Below are positions 17,588 through 64,000 of a DNA stretch of 64,000 bases, in pieces; positions within the stretch are counted from its first letter, which is position 1; every line of letters starts with the position of its first letter. Below the pieces are notes generated by a model. The model saw only the letters and a program-made list of their open reading frames with translations, was not told the origin of the DNA and did not search any database. Source of the DNA: Dehalococcoidia bacterium (GTDB taxonomy: Bacteria > Chloroflexota > Dehalococcoidia > Lucifugimonadales > UBA1123); NCBI GenBank assembly GCA_963664365.1, contig OY761144.1, positions 318,424 to 382,423 of the forward strand. Reading direction: 5' to 3'. The translations under genes were made by a program, and so were the position numbers.

Positions 17588-17663
17588 AGACCATTCCACA
17601 ACCGCCATTCCAAGCGCACCCACCTGTCACTACCATGAAAATAGCAACCATGCCCACCCAACC

Positions 17664-17690
17664 GTCATTCCGGCGAAGGCCGGAATCCAG
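17664..17690. repeat. REP-like palindrome family C
   Basis: GTCATTCCGGCGAAGGCCGGAATCCAG between convergent genes, followed by a partial family-A tail. Confidence 0.7.
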
Positions 17691-17727
17691 AGGGGAAGGG
17701 TGCGGGGCGAGGGTGAAAACCCGCCCA

Positions 17728-18633
17728 TCATTCCGCAAACATTTGCCGCAAAACCGCCATCCGAGCATACAAAGAGTTCTCAGCCTGTCGGTAGAACGCC
17801 AGCCTCTCGTCCTCCACCGCTATCGTGAAGTCCCCCGTCCGCTGCATCGGATCCATGATGATGCAGTGCGGCTTCAGCGAGTCCATGAACGACCCGTCGA
17901 TCACCAGCCGCTCGTGTCCCCGCGACACCAGCAACTGCACGTGCGCCGCCGTCCTGGGACCGTTCAGGTAGATGGCGTCGGCCTCCGACACCGCGGATAT
18001 GTCGTCCACGGTCGTCAGATCCAGCCCATTCTCAGCGCAGTGCTGGACGACCTCCTGTGGGACCCCACCGCTGAACGGCACGACCACCGCCTTCACCCCG
18101 TCGAACATCGCCAGCCCCGTAAGCAGCGCGCTGACGTTCCGATGCTCCGGCCTGCCGACTATGGCGACCGTCTTCCCGTCGATGCCGCCGAGTTCCCGGT
18201 GCAGCGTGTACAAATCCGCCAACGCCTGCGTCGGATGATCGTTCGGACTGCCGCCGTTGATCACCGGAACCGCGTCCACCGCCGCGGCGCGCTCGATAAC
18301 ATTCGCGTCCCCCGTCCTGATTACGACCACGTCGATCTTCAGACTCGCGAGAATGCTCGTGATGTCGTCGATGTTTCTCGGATTGTGTACCGGGAAGAAC
18401 TGCGATGCGTCCTCCGTATGATGCGCCTCTCCCCCCAGCAGCCCGGCGGCCCGCTCGAACGACGTCCGGGTCAGAAAGCTCGGCTCGTAGAACAGGCAGT
18501 AGAGCGCCTTGCCCCACATAACAGGTTCGCGCTCATCCTGGTTACGCAGCGACTCGCACAGCGGAAACAGATCGCCCTCGACCCACTCCCGCGTAACCCG
18601 CGCCGTCTGTATCAAGTGTCGAAGAGTCGGCAT
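17728..18633 (-). CDS. Aspartate carbamoyltransferase-like protein (divergent active site)
   Basis: FYEPS..TRTSFE, VPVINGG, HPTQALADLYT, FYRQAEN..ARMA. Confidence 0.8.
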   Translation of the reverse strand: MPTLRHLIQTARVTREWVEGDLFPLCESLRNQDEREPVMWGKALYCLFYEPSFLTRTSFERAAGLLGGEAHHTEDASQFFPVHNPRNIDDITSILASLKIDVVVIRTGDANVIERAAAVDAVPVINGGSPNDHPTQALADLYTLHRELGGIDGKTVAIVGRPEHRNVSALLTGLAMFDGVKAVVVPFSGGVPQEVVQHCAENGLDLTTVDDISAVSEADAIYLNGPRTAAHVQLLVSRGHERLVIDGSFMDSLKPHCIIMDPMQRTGDFTIAVEDERLAFYRQAENSLYARMAVLRQMFAE

Positions 18634-18724: not shown

Positions 18725-18949
18725 TCACAAACCCTGCCATTCATCGCGAGTCAATTGAGCCTGACGCATGATGCTGCGCTGGGTGCCGACGGATACCTCT
18801 CTGTGACGAGGCACGATGGCTACAAGGGTTCTCTCATCAGTTTGTTTGGTAAACTTGACGTGGCTCCCCTGTTGACTGACTGCGATGAATCCCGCTGCCA
18901 ACAGCTTGCGTACAACACGCCGATATGGGAGTGGTCTAACCGGCGGCAA
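18725..18949 (-). CDS. hicA: HicA-family toxin
   Basis: GF...QQGSHVKF...VPRH, GT..SI.RQA. Confidence 0.88.
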   Translation of the reverse strand: MPPVRPLPYRRVVRKLLAAGFIAVSQQGSHVKFTKQTDERTLVAIVPRHREVSVGTQRSIMRQAQLTRDEWQGL

Positions 18950-19142
18950 TCTCTATATTCAGGTGGTGGAGTTGTGGAGTAGGTTCGGGCCTAGGCGGCG
19001 CGAAGTATAATTCGAGCGCCTCTCGCAGATTGGCTAGAGCGTCATCTACAGACTCCCCCTGGCTGGCTATGTCCACGTCCAGGGCTTGAGCCACGTACCA
19101 GTTGCCTTCACGCCATACGCTGGCGGTTATCGTTCGCTCCAT
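18936..19142 (-). CDS. hicB: HicB-family antitoxin (short form)
   Basis: YVAQ...ASQGESVDDALANLREALELY. Confidence 0.88.
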   Translation of the reverse strand: MERTITASVWREGNWYVAQALDVDIASQGESVDDALANLREALELYFAPPRPEPTPQLHHLNIEIAAG

Positions 19143-19270
19143 TTGTTCACCCGTCCTAGCGATTTCATTTCACAGCCCGACGTATGCGATTCTCCACCAA
19201 TTCTACCACACCCTCATGCCCGCGTTCCGTTCCCCAATAGTCAGGACCAGCGCGTTGAGCGCAGCATCGT

Positions 19271-19380
19271 CCAATCTCACACATCGTAGCACAGGCTACA
19301 CGTTCGGCAGAAACAGGGTAGAGGACGTTCACATAGTCAGCGACTCATCGCGCAACAGCGCGACGAACCCCGTCTGCTCT
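19271..19380 (-). repeat. TA-array junction repeat (vapC 3' end plus promoter block), copy upstream of hicBA
   Basis: ccaatctcacacatcgtagcacagg...gaggacgttcaca..gtcagcgactcatcgcgca matches 24775-24870 and 25586-25690. Confidence 0.85.
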
Positions 19381-19613
19381 ACCACATCCACATCAGGGTT
19401 CGTTCTGATTGCGGACACGCCGTCATAAGCGAGTCTGCGCTTATATTCGCCCAGCCCGCTCATATGGTTGAGCGCTTCAACGAGCGTCATGTCAGTCGTG
19501 ACTATCCGATGCTGTCCAAGGCATGAAACTATGTGCCGAGCCGTCGCGTGCAATTGGTCATCCTCATCAAGCGCGGCTATCCAGTATCCGGCGTCAGCGA
19601 AAAGAGTCTTCAC
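19329..19613 (-). pseudogene. vapC: VapC/PIN toxin with internal in-frame deletion (cassette 4)
   Basis: FADAGYWIA and VEALN are present, but VVEQT joins directly to GFVALL; the SLTDC segment is missing. Confidence 0.8.
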
Positions 19614-19615
19614 CG

Positions 19616-19927
19616 CTACTCTTCTTTCGGATGCCCGTAGAGGTAGTGCTTATAGTTCTTTGCGCCGTCTGTCGGACCATGTTCCTTGGGGATGTGAGAC
19701 AGCGACTTGCGTATGTTGTCGAACATATCATTGATCGAATGAGTATTGGGATTATCAGACCCTTTTCCGCCGCCGGAAGCCGACATCCTCGTCTTGGGAC
19801 GGTCCTCGTCGGAAAGTTGAGTCTGAGGCTTGATGGACACCGTCACCTCCTCACCCTCCTCCAGGTCCAGCGGTTCCAACGGCGTCAGCGCCCCATTCGA
19901 GAATCTGGCTTTCACGTTTGCAATCAT
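19616..19927 (-). CDS. AF2212/DUF104-like antitoxin (cassette 4)
   Basis: MIANVKARFSNGALTPLEPLDLEEGEEV...PTDGAKNYKHYLYGHPKE. Confidence 0.8.
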   Translation of the reverse strand: MIANVKARFSNGALTPLEPLDLEEGEEVTVSIKPQTQLSDEDRPKTRMSASGGGKGSDNPNTHSINDMFDNIRKSLSHIPKEHGPTDGAKNYKHYLYGHPKEE

Positions 19928-19992
19928 CCCGATTCCTCCCAGCGAGGTTTTGCATTTCGTGCGTGTCCTCACCCAATTCTGCTTTTACGGAT

Positions 19993-20343
19993 TTAGTGGA
20001 TTGTTGCGATCTCGTAGGTCATGCCGCGCCGACGGCACCACTCTCTCGCCGCACTTTCCTTGCGAGTCACGGCCGACGAGTCCATCAACGCTGGATTCTT
20101 AACCTCGATCAGCGCCTTGCGACCGTCGGCGTATTCCACTAGGAAATCGGGCCGATAGTTGCACTTTCGCCCCCTGGTGTCGATCCACGGAATCGAAATT
20201 CCGTGCCGTTTCTGCCACTTGGCGACCTCGGCGTCATTCTCGAGTCTCAGCATCATCTTTCGTTCGAGGTCGGAGTCGTAATTCTCAAAACTGAACGGGC
20301 TTTTACCCGGGCTCTCATACCTGCCCCGTTTACTTATCGCCAT
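19993..20343 (-). CDS. TnsA N-terminal-like PD-(D/E)xK endonuclease
   Basis: YDSDLE, YRPDFLVEY, LIEVK; overlaps the res 3' end by 14 nt. Confidence 0.8.
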   Translation of the reverse strand: MAISKRGRYESPGKSPFSFENYDSDLERKMMLRLENDAEVAKWQKRHGISIPWIDTRGRKCNYRPDFLVEYADGRKALIEVKNPALMDSSAVTRKESAAREWCRRRGMTYEIATIH

Positions 20344-22339
20344 ACTTCACCATCCCTTCGATCAGGCCAGGGACGGCCTTTATCTTCTCCTCTACCTGCG
20401 GCAGCATTCGCCGCGTAGCTTCCAGGCGATACCTTTCGGCGAGTCCAAGTGACGAACCGTCAAGGAACTTTAGCCTGATGTGCCCCAGCAAGATGCCATA
20501 TATTCGACCCTTGAACTGCGAAGAGTGTCCGGCATGTTCCAGCAGTCCCTCCGCCATGCCGAGCAGTTCCTGCTTGATGCCCTCCGCCAATTGTTCCGAG
20601 TCGAGGTCAACATCTGACCCGGCTTCGTAAGTAGGTTCCTCTTCCCGAATCGTCCAGCCCTCCGAGGTAAGCTCCGTGCTCTCGACGCCTGAAATCTCCT
20701 GGTCGGTAATTGTCACAGTCTCGGTCGGATAGGCCAACCCCTCCAGTACTTCACGCCAGTTTTTCAACGGATCGGCTGGCTGATCAGGTAGATCGAGAAT
20801 GAACTCTTCAAAATCATCTTCGGACGGCTCAGGAACGTCGATCAGGTTCTCCGGGTTGACCAGTTCTTGGCGGGGTGGGGGCTCGGGTAGGTCCTCCTCC
20901 TCGTCGTATTCGTCATCTACGCCGACACCCGTACGGACTTTGCTCGTAAATATATCCCACAGCCACTGATGGTCCAGCTTGGGATGGTCCACCACCGCGC
21001 ATATCTGAGGCTCTTCCTCGGTGACTCCACCACTTCTTACACGACGCAGGCCGCGCCCAACAACCTGCTGGCCGTAAACCCGACTTCCGAACTTGCGCAG
21101 GAGTAGTATTGTGCCCACCTCTGGTACGTCCCATCCTTCTCTAAGCATCAGCACACTCACCACCGCTTCATACGGTTTACCGCTGCGGCGGGCTTTGCCC
21201 AGTTCCGTCGCCTTCCTGCGGTCTTCGACAGGACTGTCTTCGGTGACCAGCAGAGTTTTAACCTTGAAGTAGTTGCTGAGCGTCCGCTCTGCCTTCTGAG
21301 CATCCAGTTTGCACACGGCAACCACGAATAGTATCGGCTGGTAGCGGCTCTTGGCGCGCCGTTTCTGCTCGGCTAGCCGTTGGAGGGCGATGGCCATCTG
21401 CTGCTGCATAGGCTTATCGTCCGTAACCCACTGCGTCGCGTTCAACCCAAGCCGATCAATCTCATCCCAGTCGATCTCTTCGACACTACGCGTCTCCCCC
21501 GTTTGGGCGTCGGTATAGGTAAGCTCCACGGTTTCTATATTGGGCTGATATACAACCGGCGTCTTGACGAGTCTATCTGCAAGCGCGTCTTGAATCAGAT
21601 ACTCGTAAATCATGCTGCTATCAGGAGATTTGCCGTCCGCGCGGTCAGGTGTCGCCGTGGTGTCGACGCGCAGAATGGTCTTGGGCCGCATCTTTTCAAG
21701 TGCTGCGTCCCACTCCGGCGCAGGCGAGTTGTGCGCCTCGTCATTGAACAGAGCGAACGATCGGCCGTTCATCAGGCCCGATAAGTTGCTCAGACCGCTG
21801 GCGTTGCTGACATAGAACTGGTGGATGTTGCCCAGAACAAGATTGGCCCCCAGCATATCGGCCCAACCGCCGGCCCGGTCACTGCCCAAGGTGGTCAGCG
21901 CAAAGTCATCCTTGCTTACAATGGACCCCTTGGGGATCAGATCCCGGTCCTCGAACACCTTCCCGTTCTGGAAGTCTTCTTCTAGCCGGTCGCGCACGAT
22001 TAGGTTCGGACAGAGCATAACGAATTTCTGCACGTCGTGAGCTATGCGCAGCCATGCGATCAGAGCTGCGATAATGGCGGTCTTGCCCCCGCCTGTCACC
22101 ACGTTCAGCAGAACGCCGTTGGGCAGCGCGAGCGCGTTACGCTCTATCTCAAAAGAGTAGATGACACGAAGAAAGCTATCCCACTGGTGAGGCCACAGAG
22201 TTCCCACACGCGGTTTTGTGTCGTCTTCCGGATCGCTTAGGTGCCGTATGTAGTCTAGGGTCTCAGGCTTGGCGTCAGGGTAGCCGCCCTTGACCCACTG
22301 CTGGAACTCGTCTTCATATCGGCTGAACTCGTTGAACAT
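20330..22339 (-). CDS. Type III restriction Res-like SF2 helicase/ATPase
   Basis: TGGGKT, DEAH, TATP, MLREGWDV, QVVGRGLR. Confidence 0.88.
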   Translation of the reverse strand: MFNEFSRYEDEFQQWVKGGYPDAKPETLDYIRHLSDPEDDTKPRVGTLWPHQWDSFLRVIYSFEIERNALALPNGVLLNVVTGGGKTAIIAALIAWLRIAHDVQKFVMLCPNLIVRDRLEEDFQNGKVFEDRDLIPKGSIVSKDDFALTTLGSDRAGGWADMLGANLVLGNIHQFYVSNASGLSNLSGLMNGRSFALFNDEAHNSPAPEWDAALEKMRPKTILRVDTTATPDRADGKSPDSSMIYEYLIQDALADRLVKTPVVYQPNIETVELTYTDAQTGETRSVEEIDWDEIDRLGLNATQWVTDDKPMQQQMAIALQRLAEQKRRAKSRYQPILFVVAVCKLDAQKAERTLSNYFKVKTLLVTEDSPVEDRRKATELGKARRSGKPYEAVVSVLMLREGWDVPEVGTILLLRKFGSRVYGQQVVGRGLRRVRSGGVTEEEPQICAVVDHPKLDHQWLWDIFTSKVRTGVGVDDEYDEEEDLPEPPPRQELVNPENLIDVPEPSEDDFEEFILDLPDQPADPLKNWREVLEGLAYPTETVTITDQEISGVESTELTSEGWTIREEEPTYEAGSDVDLDSEQLAEGIKQELLGMAEGLLEHAGHSSQFKGRIYGILLGHIRLKFLDGSSLGLAERYRLEATRRMLPQVEEKIKAVPGLIEGMVKYGDK

Positions 22340-22342
22340 GAT

Positions 22343-24232
22343 CTATCGCACCTCAACCGTACAAACCTGCATACCCTCGCCGCCGCGGCTGTCCTGCACA
22401 CGGCAGGCGATAGAGAACTTACCCATGCGGGAGAACTTGTGGGTAATCTGGAGCTGAGGCCTCTTGTTGTTGCCGCTGCCTTTCTGGAACGAGTAGCCAG
22501 GTGTAGCGACAAAGCGCTTTCCATCGTGGTCGAGGTCCCACTGGACGTTGATTATCTCCGCGCCTGAGTTGACGACAACCGAGTCGCCGGCGTCTAGTGT
22601 GACGGAACGACTCCCAAGAGCGCGGTACGTGACCGACACTTCTGGCGGCTGTATGAACGTGAGAAACTCGCCGTAGTCGGCCCTGTCGGTCGAACGTCCG
22701 ACTATGTGCTCGCGGAAGTCGGATTCACCAATACGGATCTGTTTAAGACGCACAAAGTTGACATCGATGTGCTCGCGCTGTCTAAGTGTGTCGGCGGCTT
22801 GCCTTGCGTTTTGTCCGAAGCCCCAGGCCAGCATCACGCCGTCGCGCAGACTGGAGTCGCGGTACTCTACTGTGCGCCGTATCGCATTGGCGAAGTCCTG
22901 AACGTCACGGGCGGTGGCCTGCGAATCTAGACCGGGAGCTCCTACCCAAATAGGAAGCCGGTTTCGCCAGCCGTGAATGTAGGGACTGTCTCCATCATCC
23001 CCAATTCGGCTGGCCCCGTATGACCGCAGAACGAACTCCCTGAACTCCGTTGGTTGCATGTGCGACAATCGATTCGCTTCATATATTCCCCATTGCTCGA
23101 TAGTGAAGTCGGGTACAGCCGCTCCTTGCATGCTTCGCGTTACTGCCTGTTGCTTCAGACGCTCGGCCGTAACAGCAACAGCAACGCGAGACTGATCGCA
23201 ACCTATGAATCGCCTGCCAACTCCTGCACTGAAGTCAATAGCTGGGCGTCCTTTCTGCGTGCGTGTTGATCTAGCACCTAAAGCTGCAACCACAAAGCTC
23301 CCACCTCCCACGAAGAAATCTGCCACTAGATCGCCGGGGTCACTTGCTGCTTCGATTAACCGCTGAAGTAACTCTAGTGGCTTCTGAGTCGGATAACCAA
23401 TTCTTTCTACCTTCTCTGACGGCATGATCGGCTGGACTTCAAAATAATCCTCTGGATGCTTCCCTTTCTTATTGGGCCTATATGTGTCGTATGTTCCGGA
23501 TTGCCGGAACGCGCGAGCAGTATAGTTCAATCTTTCCACGGACTCATCAGAGTAGGGCACCCTTACGGCATCCAAGTTGAACTTGCATGTAGGTCCTTTC
23601 TTGTACCAAAAGATAATGTCATGCTTCCTCGCGAACCGATCCTTTGGCACTCCGCCGCCGCGGTAACACCACACGAGTTCATTCAAGAAGTTTTGATACC
23701 CGAATATCTTGTCCATCTCCACCTTGATGTAATGGCTAGCGTGCCAGTCGCAGTGGACGTAGATGGAGCCGGTGGGCTTGAGGAGACGCTTCATCTCGTA
23801 GAGGCGCGCATTCAGCCAGATAAGGTAGCCCGGCATGCCGTCTTCCCATATGTCGCCGAAAGAGCGCAGTTCGTTGGCATCACCCCATATCACGTTGTAT
23901 TGCTTTCCCGAGAAGAAGGGAGGATCGATGTAGATCAGGTCGATGCTATTGGGTGGAAGCTGACGCATGACGTGCAGGTTGTCGCCCCAGATCAGGCGGT
24001 TCGGCTCGTGATCTTCCGAGTTGCCCATGGGCACACGCTCGATAATCTGTGTCGGCAGATCGACCCGGGGATAGTGCTTGCAAAACTCCTGTCGCCGGTC
24101 CCAGCCCAGCGGCTCGGCCTCTACCGGGATCGACCCGAACCGCGCCGGCGGACGCCAGAACTCTTCCTGCTGCGGCAAGGGCTCATGGACTTCTACGTCG
24201 TCAGGATTTGCGTTGGTGACGAATTCTTGCAC
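22343..24232 (-). CDS. N6/N4 DNA methyltransferase (Mod-like, beta class) with C-terminal extra domains
   Basis: GDNL, IYIDPPF, YPTQKP, DFFVGGGS. Confidence 0.9.
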   Translation of the reverse strand: MQEFVTNANPDDVEVHEPLPQQEEFWRPPARFGSIPVEAEPLGWDRRQEFCKHYPRVDLPTQIIERVPMGNSEDHEPNRLIWGDNLHVMRQLPPNSIDLIYIDPPFFSGKQYNVIWGDANELRSFGDIWEDGMPGYLIWLNARLYEMKRLLKPTGSIYVHCDWHASHYIKVEMDKIFGYQNFLNELVWCYRGGGVPKDRFARKHDIIFWYKKGPTCKFNLDAVRVPYSDESVERLNYTARAFRQSGTYDTYRPNKKGKHPEDYFEVQPIMPSEKVERIGYPTQKPLELLQRLIEAASDPGDLVADFFVGGGSFVVAALGARSTRTQKGRPAIDFSAGVGRRFIGCDQSRVAVAVTAERLKQQAVTRSMQGAAVPDFTIEQWGIYEANRLSHMQPTEFREFVLRSYGASRIGDDGDSPYIHGWRNRLPIWVGAPGLDSQATARDVQDFANAIRRTVEYRDSSLRDGVMLAWGFGQNARQAADTLRQREHIDVNFVRLKQIRIGESDFREHIVGRSTDRADYGEFLTFIQPPEVSVTYRALGSRSVTLDAGDSVVVNSGAEIINVQWDLDHDGKRFVATPGYSFQKGSGNNKRPQLQITHKFSRMGKFSIACRVQDSRGGEGMQVCTVEVR

Positions 24233-24334
24233 GGCGCCTTCTCGACTCGACTGTTGCTTGCTGGTCGGGCAAATGGGTCGGCGCTATTCTATCAGCATGT
24301 GCCCAGCCGCAAAAGGTCGCAGAGAACCGCCATG

Positions 24335-24470
24335 TAGCACAGGCCCGCGCGTTCAGCGGAGACGGCGTAGAGGTCGTTCACGGGGTCAGCGACTCATCGC
24401 GCAGAAGCGCGACGAACCCCGCCTGCTCGAAATCGCGGTCATACGCCAGCGCTTCGGTTATGCCTCGTTC
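24335..24470 (-). repeat. TA-array junction repeat, copy upstream of the methyltransferase
   Basis: tagcacaggcc...gacggcgtagaggtcgttcac..ggtcagcgactcatcgcgcagaagcgcgacgaacccc. Confidence 0.85.
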
Positions 24471-24488
24471 TCCGAAGACCAACGCCAT
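24378..24488 (-). pseudogene. vapC: VapC remnant, 36 aa (cassette 3)
   Basis: MALVF fused directly to GERGITEALAYDRDFEQAGFVALL; TGATG coupling to its antitoxin is retained. Confidence 0.8.
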
Positions 24489-24742
24489 CAGTCTTCCTCT
24501 TTGGGATGACCATACAGGTAATGCTTGTGGTTCTTGGCCAAGTCCGTCGGGACATCCGCCCATTCTTCTGGTGGGATGTCTTTCTGTCGTTCCTTCACCA
24601 TTTCCACAATGGCGGCCAACCCTCGATTCGGCGCCGGCGTTGCCTCAACCGACACCATCACCTCGTCGCCCTCCTCCAGGTCCAGCGGTTCAAGTGGCAT
24701 CAGCGCCCCGTTGGAGAATCTGGCCTTCACGTTCGCGATCAT
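24488..24742 (-). CDS. AF2212/DUF104-like antitoxin (cassette 3)
   Basis: MIANVKARFSNGAL...KHYLYGHPKEED; GGAGG RBS. Confidence 0.85.
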   Translation of the reverse strand: MIANVKARFSNGALMPLEPLDLEEGDEVMVSVEATPAPNRGLAAIVEMVKERQKDIPPEEWADVPTDLAKNHKHYLYGHPKEED

Positions 24743-24965
24743 CCCAAGTCCTCCGGTTCCACACTCATACGAATCCAATCCCACACATCGTAGCACAGCC
24801 GATGCGCGGGCAGAGACGGCGTGGAGGACGTTCACATGGTCAGCGACTCATCGCGCAGAAGGGCGACGAACCCCGCTTGCTCAAAGTCCTGGTCATAGGC
24901 CAGCGCCTCGGTTATGCCCCGTTCTTCCATCAGCAGGAAACTCGCACAATCGGTGAGGCTCCACC
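24650..24965 (-). repeat. Near-identical junction repeat (about 315 bp), offset 811 bp from the next copy
   Basis: Matches about 25461-25776; vapC stops at 24832/25643 and antitoxin starts at 24742/25553 both differ by 811. Confidence 0.9.
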
Positions 24966-25260
24966 GCTGATCCAGCCGGAAAGTGTATCTCTGGACGGAT
25001 GCCACAAACTGGGTGCTAGTCTGGGGGACGACTTCCACGCTGTCATCATTCTGAATCCTCTTCACCGTATCAGAGGCGAGTCCGCGTCTGTGCGCTCCCG
25101 TTCGACACATAAAGTTGAGAAACTCGACAAGAACCATCTCGGTTGTAACTATCCGACAAGGACCTAGCCGTTCCGTAACCATGATTGCTTCCTCGTGGAA
25201 CTGATCATCAGGGTTCTGGACAGCTACCCAATATCCGGAGTCTGCGAAGACCTCTCTCAT
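24832..25260 (-). CDS. vapC: VapC/PIN toxin (cassette 2)
   Basis: VFADSGY, VEFLN, SLTDC, YDQDFEQAGF. Confidence 0.9.
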   Translation of the reverse strand: MREVFADSGYWVAVQNPDDQFHEEAIMVTERLGPCRIVTTEMVLVEFLNFMCRTGAHRRGLASDTVKRIQNDDSVEVVPQTSTQFVASVQRYTFRLDQRWSLTDCASFLLMEERGITEALAYDQDFEQAGFVALLRDESLTM

Positions 25261-25553
25261 CGGTCATCTTCCTTCGGCCACCCATACAGATAATGCTTTA
25301 GGTTCTTGGCGCCGTCGGCAGGAAGGTCGTCCCAACTAACCTTTGTCGCAGACTCACGAATCTCCCTGAGCAAATCCGAGATGGATGGAACTTCCGGAGC
25401 GGGAGAAAGCTTCCCTTCCGACTCCTGGGAAATTGTATCCAGTACGGGGCCGTCTTCAATCGACACCATCACCTCCTCGCCCTCCTCCAGGTCCAGCGGT
25501 TCAAGCGGCATCAGCGCCCCATTCGAAAATCTGGCCTTCACGTTCGCAATCAT
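25257..25553 (-). CDS. AF2212/DUF104-like antitoxin (cassette 2)
   Basis: Same conserved ends as the other copies; ATGA overlap with vapC. Confidence 0.85.
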   Translation of the reverse strand: MIANVKARFSNGALMPLEPLDLEEGEEVMVSIEDGPVLDTISQESEGKLSPAPEVPSISDLLREIRESATKVSWDDLPADGAKNLKHYLYGWPKEDDR

Positions 25554-25776
25554 CCCAAGTCCTCCGGTTCCACACTCATACGAATCCAATCTCACACATC
25601 GTAGCACAGTCGATGCGCGGGCAGAGACGGCGTGGAGGACGTTCACATGGTCAGCGACTCATCGCGCAGAAGCGCGACGAACCCCGCCTGCTCGAAATCG
25701 CGGTCATAGGCCAGCGCCTCAGTTATGCCCCGTTCTTCCATCAGCAGGAAACTAGCGCAGTCGGTGAGGCTCCAGC
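25461..25776 (-). repeat. Near-identical junction repeat, second copy
   Basis: Matches about 24650-24965. Confidence 0.9.
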
Positions 25777-26071
25777 GCTGATCGCCTCGGTCAGCGTAGC
25801 GTTCCACTGCGGCCCTGAACTGCCTGTCTGTCTGCGGGACGATTTCGACGTCGGGATTATCCTCTAACTCTCGAATCATCTGCACCGCAAGACTACGAAG
25901 GTGTTCGCCCCCTCGCGACACGTAGTTGAGCGCTTCGGTGACTACCATCTGACTTGTCGTGATCCTAAACGATCCCAACTCCGCAGCCACCTCACTCGCC
26001 CGTTCGTGAAGCGGGTCTCTGTCGTCCAAGTTCGCTATGAAGTATCCAGCGTCAGCGAAGACCATGGTCAT
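25643..26071 (-). CDS. vapC: VapC/PIN toxin (cassette 1)
   Basis: VFADAGY, TEALN, SLTDC, YDRDFEQAGF. Confidence 0.9.
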   Translation of the reverse strand: MTMVFADAGYFIANLDDRDPLHERASEVAAELGSFRITTSQMVVTEALNYVSRGGEHLRSLAVQMIRELEDNPDVEIVPQTDRQFRAAVERYADRGDQRWSLTDCASFLLMEERGITEALAYDRDFEQAGFVALLRDESLTM

Positions 26072-26343
26072 TAGTCTTCAACCTTTGGATGACCGTAAAG
26101 GTAATGCTTGTAGTTCTTGGCGCCATCCGTGGGCATATCGTCCCATGCCTCGGGCGGGACTGATTTGCGGAGCCTCTCAAACATCTCCAGAATGGACTCC
26201 TTCCTTTTGGCAGGCGGAGACGAGTCCCCTATAGACACCGTCACCTCTATAGACACCGTCACCTCCTCACCCTCCTCCAACTCCAGCGGTTCAAGCGGCA
26301 TCAGCGCCCCATTCGAAAATCTGGCCTTCACGTTCGCGATCAT
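26071..26343 (-). CDS. AF2212/DUF104-like antitoxin (cassette 1)
   Basis: Conserved ends; 18-bp internal duplication (EVTVSI x2). Confidence 0.85.
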   Translation of the reverse strand: MIANVKARFSNGALMPLEPLELEEGEEVTVSIEVTVSIGDSSPPAKRKESILEMFERLRKSVPPEAWDDMPTDGAKNYKHYLYGHPKVED

Positions 26344-26525
26344 CCCAAGTCCTCCCAGCGAGGTTTTGCATCTCGTGCGCTCTCGATATCACACATCGTA
26401 GCACACGCCGCATAGAAACTTGCGAGGATCACTAATCTACGATAGAATTAGTACAAATGCCCGTGCTGATGTGACGACTTGGGGCCGCTCCCTACCGGCT
26501 GCGGACTCAGGCAATTGGAGCGATT

Positions 26526-60807: not shown

Positions 60808-63800
60808 CCAGACGGAGTCGAGATGAGAAGAACACTCCTCCGGCAAGGACGATTGCCACGATCGCGATGACCGCCATCGTCCATAGTGGGAAGCCGCTCT
60901 CCTCGATGTTCGCATCCGCGCCGGCCGGAGTTGGCGTCGCGGTGGGCGTCGGCGTAGGCTCAGACGCCGGCGCCGCGGAGGGCAGCGGTGTGTGAGTCAC
61001 GGGGATCGCCAGCGTGAGTATCTTGATGGGCGTTGGCGCAAGAATCCCCTCAGGTTCAGGCGTCGGCGTTATAGTGGGCGCCGGGATTGGCGTTGGGGTC
61101 GGCGACGCGGCGGGCCGCCTCGCAGGTGTGGGCTTGGGCGTCTGCGTGGGCGTTGGGGTAGGCGAGAGCGTTGGCTCAGATGTGGGCGCTGGGGCAGGCG
61201 GGAGCGTATGCGCCGGTGTGGGAGTAAATGTCGGCGGCGGCGCTGGAGTAGGCTCAGGGGTTGGCGTGGATGTCGGCGGCGGTGTGGGAGTAGGCTCAGG
61301 GGTTGGCGTGGATGTCGGCGGCGGTGTGGGCGTTCGAGTAGGCGGGAGCGTTGGCTCAGGCGTTGGCATGGGTTGGGGCGTGGGGGAAGCGGTAGGCGTG
61401 GGATCGGGTCGAACAATGTCACTCGCGCCTGCCTCGGGCGTAGTCGATGCCAGCGCCATCGCGTCCGGATCGGGCGAGGGCAGAACCGGCAGCGTGGCCG
61501 GGCTCTCAGCCATCTTGCCGGGTCCGTGAGCGTCGGCGTAGGCAGCCGTCACCCTCAGCAGCTTGTCTTCGTCACCGGGCGTTGGCGCGTAGTCGGGGGA
61601 CGACGCTCCTTCCACGTCTATCCAGACCGTCCCGTCAGATGATGTCTGCCACTGCCAGGCGGTATCCGATACGCTGCCGTCGGGGTCGGACAGGATGGCT
61701 GTGACAATCTTGCCGGTCTCGGGTTCGTTGGAAGAGAGCGTTATCGCGCCGGGTTCGTCCACGTTGTTCACTTCGATGGTTATGGCGATATCGGCGCTCG
61801 AACCTTCCCTGTCAGTGGCGAACACGATTATCGAGTAGGCGCGCTTCGTCTCATAGTCCAGTTTTGCCGCGACCGTAATCTGTCCCGATTCCCGGTCCAC
61901 GCGGAAAGCCGAAGCGTCGGCTCCCAAAAGCGAGTAGGCGACATCGGCGTCGGGGGCCTGCTCCTTGACGATTACAGGACTGCCAACAGGAGACCCCTCA
62001 GCGGAGTTTTCATTCACCTTGAGGGTGATCCTTCGGGAATCGAATTGGGGCGCCGTCCACTTCACATTTGAGGTAGTCGCCTGGTTATCCGCGTTGGTTG
62101 AAACCGTCACGTCGCCGGGGGAAGCCGGCGGCTCGTCAACGTCACTCACAGGGTTGGCTTCATCGTCGTCTATGACGGTGACTGTGGAGGTAGAAGGACT
62201 GCCCGCGTTCACGCCGTCGTCGTTCGTGTCCAGTGTGAGCGTGACTTCGTCGTCCGCGGCGTCGTTGTCCTGGTCTCCTGATATCGTGAAACTGACGAAA
62301 CTCAGGCCTCGGGAGATGGTCAGATCGCCGTTTGAGTCGAGGCCGGAGAGAGTCGCGCCGTTCCCTGTCTTGGTGATCGTCAGCGTTACGTCGCGGTCGG
62401 CGGACGGGGTTACGTTGACCGTGGCGGTGGCGGTCGCCCCCTCGGCGACTGAGTAGGCGACCGCGCTGAAGCGGACGGTCAATGGCATCTTGTCAGTAGC
62501 GCCGCTGCCCTCGGCCCATGGGCCTTCGCCCTCGTCGTTGTTGGCGCGGACCCGCACCCGGTACGTGGCGCTGGAGTCCAAATTGGATATCGTCGTCTCT
62601 CTGGCGTCGTCGTCGAAGTTTAGATCGATCCAGTCAGTCTCTCCGTGAGCTCGGTACTGTACTTGGTACTTCAAGGGCGGACCAGTATTCTGAGCTATGG
62701 GCCACCGCGCCAGCAGTTCACTCGTACTCAGCGCGGATACCGTGACCGGAGCGACGCTGCCCGGCGGCTCAGCGACATCGCTCACCGTAACGTTCAGCGT
62801 GACGCTGGCGTCGGTTTCAGAGTCGGGGTTTCCGACGTTGTCCTTGCTGTCGCGCACACTTAGAGTCAGCGTAAACGATGACGCATCCTCGTAGTTCAGG
62901 CCGGATATCAGCGTGACCTGGCCGAGGCTGCTCACCTCGAAGCGCTCCGACCCTTCACCGGAGAGCGAGTAGGTCAACGGGTCGCCTTCGGGGTCAGTGG
63001 CAGCAATAGGATTGCCCAGCAATGCCCCTACTGGTGAGTCTTCGGGGATTGTGCGGTTCACAGTGGTAGATGCGAACGCCGGCGGAAGATTGGGGGTCTC
63101 GTCGTCCATGACGGTCACGGTGGAGGTGGAAGGATTTCCTACGTTCACGCCGCCGTCGGTCGTGCTCAGTGTGAGCATGATCTTGCCGTTCGTGGCGTCG
63201 TTGTCATGGTCGCCTGAGATCGTGAAACTGCCGGAGCTTAGGCCGCGGACGATGGTCAGGTTGCCTTTTGAGTCGAGGCCGGTTAGTGTCGCGCCGTCCC
63301 CGGCCTTGGTTATCGTCACCGTCACGTCGCGGTCGGCGGACGGGGTTACATTCACCGTGGCGGTGGTCGTCGCCCCCTCGGCGACTGAGTAGGCGGTCGC
63401 GCTGAAGCCGACGGTCAGCAGAGCCTCCGCGGTCTTGGCGCCGGACGTCGGCGACCACGGACCTTCACCCTCGACGTTGACCGCTCTTACCTGTGCGCCG
63501 TAGTAGGTATTGGAGGATAGGCCGGTAATCGTCGTCTCGGTGGTAGTGGCGGTGGATGCAAAGTCGTGAATGATCCAGTCAGTCTCACTCTGCGCTCTGT
63601 ATTGCGCCTCATATCCTGTGACGCTGGGAGCGCCAACCGGGAGGACGGGCGCGACCCATTTGAGTATCAGCATACTGGTCATGTCGGAGGCGCCGGAAGC
63701 GGAGAACCCCGGCTGTTTCATCGAGGGCGGCGGCTCGTCGATGTCAGTCACGTTTACCGTAATCGTCACCGGGGCTGAATTGTCTGTACCGTCGCTGGCG

Positions 63801-64000
63801 GTGACTGCCAACTCGTATCCGTTGTCTCCGCCCGTGTCGCTCGGGCTCTCGTAGTCGGGGGCGGTGACGAAGGACAGAACGCCTCCGTTGGTCACGCTGA
63901 ACAGCGCTCCGTCGGCCCCGGAAGCGATGCTCCAGCCGGTTATCGCGTCTCCGTCCGGGTCGGTAGCTTGCAGCGTGGCGACGGACGTTTGGTTCTCCGG
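60773..64000 (-). CDS. Large surface protein: cadherin, FN3 and Calx-beta-like repeats, Pro/Thr stalk, C-terminal TM (5' end outside window)
   Basis: Frame is open to 64000; DYE/LNYE cadherin motifs, Y.VRVRA.N.EGEGPW FN3 motifs, (TP)n. Confidence 0.88.
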   Translation of the reverse strand, partial: PENQTSVATLQATDPDGDAITGWSIASGADGALFSVTNGGVLSFVTAPDYESPSDTGGDNGYELAVTASDGTDNSAPVTITVNVTDIDEPPPSMKQPGFSASGASDMTSMLILKWVAPVLPVGAPSVTGYEAQYRAQSETDWIIHDFASTATTTETTITGLSSNTYYGAQVRAVNVEGEGPWSPTSGAKTAEALLTVGFSATAYSVAEGATTTATVNVTPSADRDVTVTITKAGDGATLTGLDSKGNLTIVRGLSSGSFTISGDHDNDATNGKIMLTLSTTDGGVNVGNPSTSTVTVMDDETPNLPPAFASTTVNRTIPEDSPVGALLGNPIAATDPEGDPLTYSLSGEGSERFEVSSLGQVTLISGLNYEDASSFTLTLSVRDSKDNVGNPDSETDASVTLNVTVSDVAEPPGSVAPVTVSALSTSELLARWPIAQNTGPPLKYQVQYRAHGETDWIDLNFDDDARETTISNLDSSATYRVRVRANNDEGEGPWAEGSGATDKMPLTVRFSAVAYSVAEGATATATVNVTPSADRDVTLTITKTGNGATLSGLDSNGDLTISRGLSFVSFTISGDQDNDAADDEVTLTLDTNDDGVNAGSPSTSTVTVIDDDEANPVSDVDEPPASPGDVTVSTNADNQATTSNVKWTAPQFDSRRITLKVNENSAEGSPVGSPVIVKEQAPDADVAYSLLGADASAFRVDRESGQITVAAKLDYETKRAYSIIVFATDREGSSADIAITIEVNNVDEPGAITLSSNEPETGKIVTAILSDPDGSVSDTAWQWQTSSDGTVWIDVEGASSPDYAPTPGDEDKLLRVTAAYADAHGPGKMAESPATLPVLPSPDPDAMALASTTPEAGASDIVRPDPTPTASPTPQPMPTPEPTLPPTRTPTPPPTSTPTPEPTPTPPPTSTPTPEPTPAPPPTFTPTPAHTLPPAPAPTSEPTLSPTPTPTQTPKPTPARRPAASPTPTPIPAPTITPTPEPEGILAPTPIKILTLAIPVTHTPLPSAAPASEPTPTPTATPTPAGADANIEESGFPLWTMAVIAIVAIVLAGGVFFSSRLRLAKIHHQVAGCP

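Follow-up and report, generated by a model that had tools for sequence, protein, structure and literature searches.

How four toxin-antitoxin (TA) units at a single locus can share almost the same ends and yet carry middle parts that hardly resemble each other is the question raised by a 64,000-nucleotide stretch from the genome of a Dehalococcoidia bacterium (GenBank assembly GCA_963664365.1, contig OY761144.1, positions 318,424 to 382,423), which is called the window here and provides the numbering of all plain coordinates. How paralogous TA pairs come by new, insulated specificities while avoiding a lethal mismatch on the way is, to our knowledge, an open question. The units occupy a minus-strand region bounded by otsA (26526) and the gene for a pyrB-like carbamoyltransferase (18633), and consist of AF2212-like antitoxins (A1 to A4) and VapC/PIN toxins or their remnants (T1 to T4). 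As judged from sequence comparisons within and between genomes, they form a real and well-supported mosaic array, and the underlying recombination pattern extends over the whole family.

In the order of transcription, the region starts with a promoter, followed by A1-T1, a junction, A2-T2, a second junction, A3 with the remnant of T3 and a broken junction; it continues with a Mod-Res-nuclease module, a leader, A4 with the deleted T4, a further junction, and hicB-like and hicA genes. The initial annotation had described four head-to-tail units and overlooked both the Type III-like restriction module of 4.4 kb between units 3 and 4 and the loss of two toxins. The array should rather be regarded as three tandem units (U1 to U3) plus a fourth one (U4, 19329-19927), cut off from them by this module (19993-24232), with only T1 and T2 being intact. 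Each antitoxin gene is located directly upstream of its VapC/PIN gene or remnant and is coupled to it by a stop/start overlap or a 2-nucleotide gap. The AF2212-like profile (PF01954) is matched above its cut-off by 4/4 antitoxins, the PIN profile (PF01850) by T1 and T2 only. Five acidic residues that are invariant in 50 homologues (D7, E46, D104, D123, and D125) are kept in T1 and T2, and T3 and T4 are incomplete through deletion. All four antitoxins begin with MIANVKARFSNGAL and contain KHYLYG, and all four toxin frames finish with GFVALLRDESLT, exactly the constant ends that had been claimed before. The closest solved sequences are those of VapC20 for T1 (PDB 5wzf and 5wz4; E 8e-7 over residues 3-134) and AF_2212 for A1 (PDB 2nwt; E 0.003 over residues 5-47), both being distant matches. 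The acidic PIN residues are conserved between T1 and VapC20; the latter is titled "23S rRNA-specific endonuclease". Scans with NCBIfam and PADLOC gave no name for the TA genes, and a low-confidence monomer model of A1 (pLDDT 64, pTM 0.24) led to no fold match at E up to 0.001 (top 2nwt, E 0.25), which is not taken as evidence. A1 further contains a short in-frame duplication (26255-26290, VTVSIE twice), which is missing from its orthologue in the closest genome, G017.

The core of a unit is defined here as the part from the antitoxin helix through the N-terminal two-thirds of the toxin. Two junctions 811 bp apart are 94% identical across 315 bp, and their 89-bp non-coding spacers, J1 (25554-25642) and J2 (24743-24831), are 97.8% identical, which confirms the near-identical junction of about 315 bp and the 811-bp period reported initially. 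The predicted divergence of the antitoxin middles and the N-terminal two-thirds of the toxins is equally evident, because the cores share only 52-70% of their DNA sequence between the units, compared to 84-93% in antitoxin codons 1-32. Similar differences are seen between 51 intact homologous units whose pairs were matched by motif, where the cores have median DNA identities of 0.50-0.51, and the antitoxin 5' end, the hinge and the toxin 3' end reach 0.64, 0.71 and 0.76, respectively. Conserved protein ends are a family-wide feature, and recombination handles therefore do not need any special system.

The higher conservation of ends than cores throughout the family might also suggest an explanation without any recombination, namely plain duplication followed by purifying selection on the ends, or even an assembly artefact. 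The 51 intact units yield 1007 core-divergent pairs, in which both cores are less than 60% alike, and U1/U2 shows the top end identity among them (0.92, compared to a median of 0.69 and a 99th percentile of 0.83). Moreover, 26/31 four-fold synonymous sites are identical in U1/U2, compared to a median of 0.33 among core-divergent pairs. Because of these two values, the end homogeneity of the array exceeds what purifying selection gives. Together with the 97.8% identity of a non-coding spacer, the incongruent trees described below and the unitigs, they refute an origin without recombination, which we regard as hardly credible. Short-read unitigs from three runs of one study, perhaps of the source sample, match most of the region, the chimeric joints in A2 and A4 included, with no mismatch and at an even depth like that of the flanks. 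These unitigs may include the source sample and serve as an assembly check only, blind to recombination inside identical repeats; joints listed from them, such as 25729 to 19566, were excluded for short sides and extra letters. Misassembly, which the initial annotation had considered, is ruled out by the mismatch-free unitigs that span the chimeric joints.

A view on the relatives of the individual parts, with one genome per species, shows that the array units are each other's best matches in antitoxin codons 1-32, whereas the best core match of every unit sits in another genome. Unit 1 carries the native core: A1 (26071-26343, minus strand like all features of the array; 90 amino acids) and T1 (25643-26071; 142 amino acids) share 93 and 90% of their core DNA with the orthologous unit of G017. 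A2 (25257-25553; 98 amino acids) is chimeric, with a local 5' end and a core of the type found in G001 and G002 (68-72%), and continues into T2 (24832-25260; 142 amino acids) with a G001-type core (70%) and a local 3' end; the best values for the U2 core are 72% for the antitoxin (G002) and 70% for the toxin (G001). The orphan antitoxin A3 (24488-24742; 84 amino acids) joins the local 5' end to a core that is 85-86% identical to those of G023c and G010, and is followed by a T3 remnant of 36 amino acids (24378-24488), which lacks D7, E46, and D104 through an internal deletion. A4 (19616-19927; 103 amino acids) is another chimeric orphan, with a local 5' end 87-93% identical to that of A1 across the first 90 nucleotides and a core of the G014c/d type (86-87%). 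T4 (19329-19613; 94 amino acids) likewise combines a G014c-type core (85%) with the local 3' end, and has lost D104, D123, and D125 by a 48-codon in-frame deletion between short direct repeats. The 5' ends of the core relatives of U2 to U4 are merely 60-68% like those of the array.

Region-wise trees show the genes to be mosaic. The core tree, which has 41 rows, places the units in four distinct starred clades, each together with homologues of other genomes, and a single array clade is rejected in the approximately unbiased (AU) test with p 4.4e-85. The 5'-end tree in turn rejects the core groupings of U4 with G014c/d (p 1e-4), U3 with G023c/G010 (7e-6), and U2 with G001/G002 (0.024), the trios having been picked by core identity and tested on the 5'-end columns; the grouping of U1 with G017 is not rejected (p 0.10). 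These trees leave out G017_2 (other subfamily), G004b (fusion), G035_1 (TPR insert), and the near-duplicates ML119, ML124, ML130, and G012c. The breakpoints of the mosaic lie within the coding sequence, and U4 changes sharply near codon 33 from the local to a G014c-like sequence.

These data also bear on the view of an old array under concerted evolution, in which the cores would have diverged in place while gene conversion between neighbours kept the junctions alike and solo homologues were exported or inherited. Patchy conversion would give uneven junction differences, such as the 84-94% observed between the junction copies, and conversion between neighbours probably occurs on top of any origin of the array. 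As the sole source of the pattern it appears quite unlikely, however, since the sister genome G017 contains one unit at the locus and neither an array nor a tandem pair of this subfamily was found in the 29 other genomes of the genus, of which 23 were positive for the toxin and 20 for the antitoxin. The locus comparison is informative for G017 only, because the stretches upstream of the pyrB-like gene in the other 28 genus genomes contain no match to TA, restriction-modification (R-M), or otsA genes. In addition, array cores are 85-87% identical to units of genomes whose pyrB-like proteins are only 67-69% identical, so that recent core transfer is needed, and the core relatives bear different ends, which they share among themselves.

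The origin of the local ends is illuminated by G017, the closest genome (pyrB-like protein 93% identical; genome 63% complete). Its version of the conserved flank with the pyrB-like gene (17728-18633 in the window) bears a single A1/T1 orthologue; beyond it lie what is left of a PLD-SNF2 helicase and a Type IIG enzyme, and then an AF2212-VapC pair that belongs to another subfamily. The sequence 3' of each array toxin corresponds to the first six codons of this helicase, fused to the promoter region found ahead of the antitoxin in G017. In J1, the stub comprises these six codons, with the helicase start overlapping the toxin stop, and is followed by the ancestral promoter (-10 motif at 25598-25608) and a ribosome-binding site; J2 has its -10 motif at 24787-24797. 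We read the junction as the scar of a local tandem duplication, because the helicase stub is joined to a promoter which in G017 is found upstream of the antitoxin. A helicase start 3' of the toxin is present in 8/51 intact units, including U1, U2, the G017 unit, and the U4 core relative G014c. As a separate observation, the collapsed helicase and Type IIG remnants of G017 (L051:2221-2872) have a second copy of the promoter block between them, and a full helicase with a partial Type IIG homologue occurs elsewhere in the genome of the window (G000, near C1:2780364-2787894).

The promoter block itself is an extended -10 motif, TGTGnTAnnAT, which occurs at 55 sites in the genome compared to 26 expected, many of them, as judged by eye, shortly before apparent gene starts. 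It is found in the leader of unit 1 (26344-26405; TGTGCTACGAT at 26395-26405) and upstream of the single orthologous unit of G017, and every full unit is predicted from this motif to bear its own promoter. Unlike in the initial description of a near-identical junction, the copy after T3 is broken inside the -10 motif (24334-24377, the left edge of the restriction module), and A4 is preceded by an A1-type leader without the block (19928-19963). A fourth full copy follows T4 as part of the last junction block (19270-19328, helicase stub and promoter with -10 motif at 19283-19293), and now precedes hicBA. A promoter scanner did not find any of the blocks, because it requires a -35 match, and no conserved palindrome was spotted by eye in the junction alignments as a candidate operator.

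The recurrence of this block at cargo boundaries in both G000 and G017 and the presence of two tyrosine recombinases in the genome may invoke integron-like or otherwise site-specific cassettes, whose units would be excised and inserted at the block by a recombinase acting in trans. However, no recombinase is encoded near the array: the only two matches to PF00589 in the 96% complete genome are more than 1.5 Mb away, and there is no match to a resolvase, which agrees with the earlier remark that no recombinase is visible. Moreover, inverted repeats of at least 20 nucleotides overlapping the blocks were not found (the attC model was not run), the mosaic breakpoints are inside coding sequence rather than at the block or cassette boundaries, and other genera swap cores without the block. 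An integron or dif-like site was rejected on these grounds, and the term "integron-like" used in the initial annotation does not fit an ordinary promoter motif of the genome; we consider site-specific cassettes very improbable.

The same pattern recurs in other genomes. A metagenome scan gave single units at 17/17 loci. Adjacent pairs occur in 3/42 positive genomes among 400 of the class (G245, G170, and G086) and in 4/72 among 400 of the order (G767, G175, G546, and G451), plus G035; no other genome has more than two units, which makes the window array the longest one seen. The pairs of G767 and G546 are recent, largely uniform antitoxin duplicates (89 and 85%), G086 has its leader and 5' end in duplicate, together with a different core and a truncated toxin, and G175 contains two dissimilar tandem antitoxins whose ends are not homogenised. 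Internal toxin deletions are also present in solo copies (G010, G014d, G004b, and G015). At the orthologous locus of G170 and G245, most flank windows are 91-100% identical, compared to 49% for one antitoxin core and 52% for the toxin core. Likewise, G035u1, G446, and G451u2 share 89-93% of their ends and 45-60% of their cores. In a reciprocal exchange between two genera, the ends track the genus, with 89-97% identity inside a genus and 69-80% from one genus to the other, while two core types cross this boundary, with 82 and 76% between G245 and G446, and 74 and 80% between G135 and G035u1. Orthologous loci in three other genera thus have the same ends and different cores, which on these alignments amounts to core-only replacement. 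The two replaced cores of G245 are not adjacent and nevertheless represent the pair adjacent in G446, which argues for the cores as matched specificity units. The proposal that the constant blocks act as recombination handles by which cores are swapped or added is borne out by these core-only differences and by the four core clades whose 5' ends do not group likewise.

Taken together, these observations are probably best explained by tandem duplication of one resident pair, followed by replacement of the middles with those of incoming relatives via homologous recombination. The ancestor would have been a single unit of promoter, antitoxin and toxin, followed by a helicase gene and placed in a restriction island upstream of the pyrB-like gene, an arrangement which is seen in G017 and may be the ancestral one. 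Local duplication would have fused the first six helicase codons to the promoter, creating the junction, and foreign cores would have entered between the conserved ends; such a core begins at the neutralising helix of the antitoxin, includes the KHYLYG/FAD hinge and extends over roughly two-thirds of the toxin. The mosaic is directly apparent in the genes, and RecA-type recombination with transformed or transduced DNA may have produced it, with the antitoxin 5' end, the KHYLYG/FAD hinge, and the toxin 3' end plus helicase start as presumable homology arms; the uptake genes for ComEC and DprA are present in the genome. A dedicated recombinase would not be necessary. A duplicate would make the replacement of a core survivable, the old antitoxin being retained. 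Each core is likely to represent a matched toxin-antitoxin specificity, and the shared N-terminal domain and promoter would place all units in one autoregulatory circuit.

A closely related explanation, ends-in capture, assumes that each foreign fragment, including the restriction module, inserted at an existing junction and duplicated it, so that cargoes were added singly, without any stage of a duplicated full unit. It gives the same junction-cargo-junction pattern and agrees with the location of the restriction module and hicBA at junction copies and with the second promoter copy of G017, which heads different cargo; moreover, a duplicated AbrB-VapC pair brackets a large open reading frame (ORF) elsewhere in the genome. 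The mechanism is known for R-M genes without other mobile elements, which insert with a long target duplication (PMC2853133), and the available part of that report resembles the present case in a restriction module without integrase or transposase amid repeated sequence. However, direct repeats of more than 30 bp are expected there, whereas the two flanks of the restriction module in the array are different parts of the junction and not copies of each other. Orthologous loci also show replacement at a constant number of units (G035u1 vs. G446; G086u2 vs. G253b), and near-uniform duplicates exist in G767 and G546, which renders ends-in capture rather unlikely.

Several points weigh against duplication followed by core replacement. 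The sequence alone cannot tell this order of events from insertion with duplication of the junction. The array clade in the 5'-end tree is unsupported (32% of bootstrap trees; 99 columns) and only not rejected (p 0.46). The 5' end of U1 is only 76% identical to that of its G017 orthologue, below the windows of the flanking genes (72-92%, mostly >80%), so that even this "local" end has recombined in one lineage. The true donors are not among the genomes found, the nearest relatives being 70-87% alike, so that the presumed direction of transfer relies on the 63% complete genome of G017 alone. Finally, antitoxin and toxin cores do not always travel together: G086u2 and G253b have antitoxin cores of 100% and toxin cores of 63% identity, and among 20 pairs with antitoxin cores at least 80% alike, the toxin cores reach at least 79% in 13, 63-74% in 6, and 47% in 1 (G170/G245).

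The restriction module itself consists of a Mod methyltransferase (22343-24232; N6_N4_Mtase with a PKD tail) followed by a Res helicase (20330-22339; positions 120-375 of the REase_III profile), as in Type III R-M systems. It departs from these in having its nuclease as a separate, TnsA-like ORF of 116 amino acids (19993-20343; C-terminal part of the same profile, positions 740-826) and not as part of the Res polypeptide. The same is true of a homologue in G004 (L146:6060-10283), whose Mod is split into two frames and which has no TA neighbour. A genome retaining both flanks of the module around an empty site was not found among those compared. The second cargo is the HicB-like (DUF7387) and HicA pair (18725-19142), with its own -10 motif (19200-19210). 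Both cargoes are positioned at junction promoters, by way of which they may have entered the hot spot.

With the catalytic parts of T3 and T4 deleted, A3 and A4 are left as orphan antitoxins which may neutralise incoming toxins of the respective types. A further reading, which we put forward only tentatively and consider doubtful, is that the array represents an acquired antitoxin library, in which foreign VapBC cores were captured and put under the array's own promoter and DNA-binding domain before the toxin was deleted. The captured modules would then be those guarding incoming restriction islands.

Both families of the array have been described together before. COG2880/DUF104 (AF2212-like)-PIN was predicted as a type II TA pair, and clusters of closely related copies in Archaeoglobus fulgidus suggested tandem duplication and TA "islands" (PMC2701414). 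The array has the same two families in the same gene order; a mosaic of local ends with foreign cores, orphan antitoxins and an exchange of cores between genera do not appear in the accessible portion of that account. A closer parallel is offered by the immunity paralogues of type VII secretion systems, esaG in Staphylococcus aureus and tipC in Streptococcus, which are arranged in tandem and recombine through homology blocks to give mosaics, losses, and expansions (PMC9484751). As far as described there, variable regions are likewise surrounded by homology blocks, one of which comprises a gene end and the intergenic region. However, those genes confer immunity to secreted toxins and were shown to change at the strain level, whereas a unit of the array is a two-gene intracellular TA operon under its own promoter, and its variable core spans both genes and finds its matches in other species, not among the neighbouring units. 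In Type III mod genes of Helicobacter pylori, the specificity region (target recognition domain, TRD) moves between non-orthologous loci and between species via DNA for conserved motifs (PMC3467074). According to the available excerpt, both cases are diagnosed from incongruent trees, and in both a variable region crosses loci and taxa through conserved coding motifs; the TRD is a DNA-recognition domain within one gene, whereas the array core would be a two-gene protein-protein module with a presumed role in specificity. The array may thus be said to work like the esaG/tipC arrays and TRD movement, by analogy, while being a member of neither. "Mix and match" of TA genes is described at the gene level only in the part of PMC10305079 that was available, and PMC5398294 deals with a variable defence locus. 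The literature searched, which excluded most subscription papers, described neither an exchange of cores nor mosaic arrays for type II TA systems.

Some further observations concern relatives of the array and its genomic surroundings. A fifth, solo member of the family in the same genome (G000:C1:54961-55679) has unrelated ends and a stop codon near the toxin start; this dispersed copy is not homogenised with the array. At G000:C1:74936-80100, an AbrB-like/VapC pair is duplicated (82% over 735 bp) around a 604-amino acid McrB-like ORF, which is followed by a McrC-like ORF and a third VapC pair, the names being read from the sequence; it is the second instance in which duplicated TA genes flank probable restriction genes. 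The genome has many local tandem repeats and 30 PIN-domain matches, and a long tandem array that repeats about every 950 bp starts at the end of the window (about 62150-64000; G000:C1:380576-390678). A short intergenic repeat at 17657-17700 with very high read depth and a copy in G017 has a REP-like look. One family member is present at four separate places on contigs C3, C4, and C5 of G245, in copies of equal score, which suggests that a repeated element carries it. In G449 (L273:11833-13266), the AF2212 domain is replaced by a long TPR-repeat protein, to which the antitoxin helix and KHYLYG module are fused, with the toxin directly downstream. Long open frames are also found in G042, G473, G539, G630, G666, G693, G712, and G761, and a shorter insert, similar in sequence, occurs in G035. 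The neutralising module is portable, and the TPR part could be a sensor. The loci upstream of polA in genus g12 (G449 L273:3942-17214) form a variable defence hot spot, which differs in content among 9 genomes and holds a Type IIG R-M system, a ParE/RelE-family toxin, a duplicated AF2212-VapC pair of another subfamily, the TPR-antitoxin/VapC genes, and a helicase.

For the biology of TA systems, the locus points to a candidate route to new specificities that is visible in genomes: the entire interacting module, comprising parts of both genes, would be exchanged between conserved ends, while a duplicate shelters the old antitoxin. The recombination principle is known from immunity-gene arrays and restriction TRDs and would be extended here to a new class of genes, with no new machine involved. 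The locus also appears to provide a natural panel of four antitoxins with nearly the same DNA-binding domain, four cores and two live toxins, complemented by matched swaps in other genera, which makes cognate specificity, cross-regulation, and anti-addiction testable. If the doubtful library reading applied, tandem orphan antitoxins would both record past addiction modules in heritable form and confer immunity to them, and would constitute a recombinase-free, protein-level analogue of orphan-immunity arrays across Dehalococcoidia genera. If cores are swapped as proposed, this would let TA pairs gain new specificities and stock spare antidotes.

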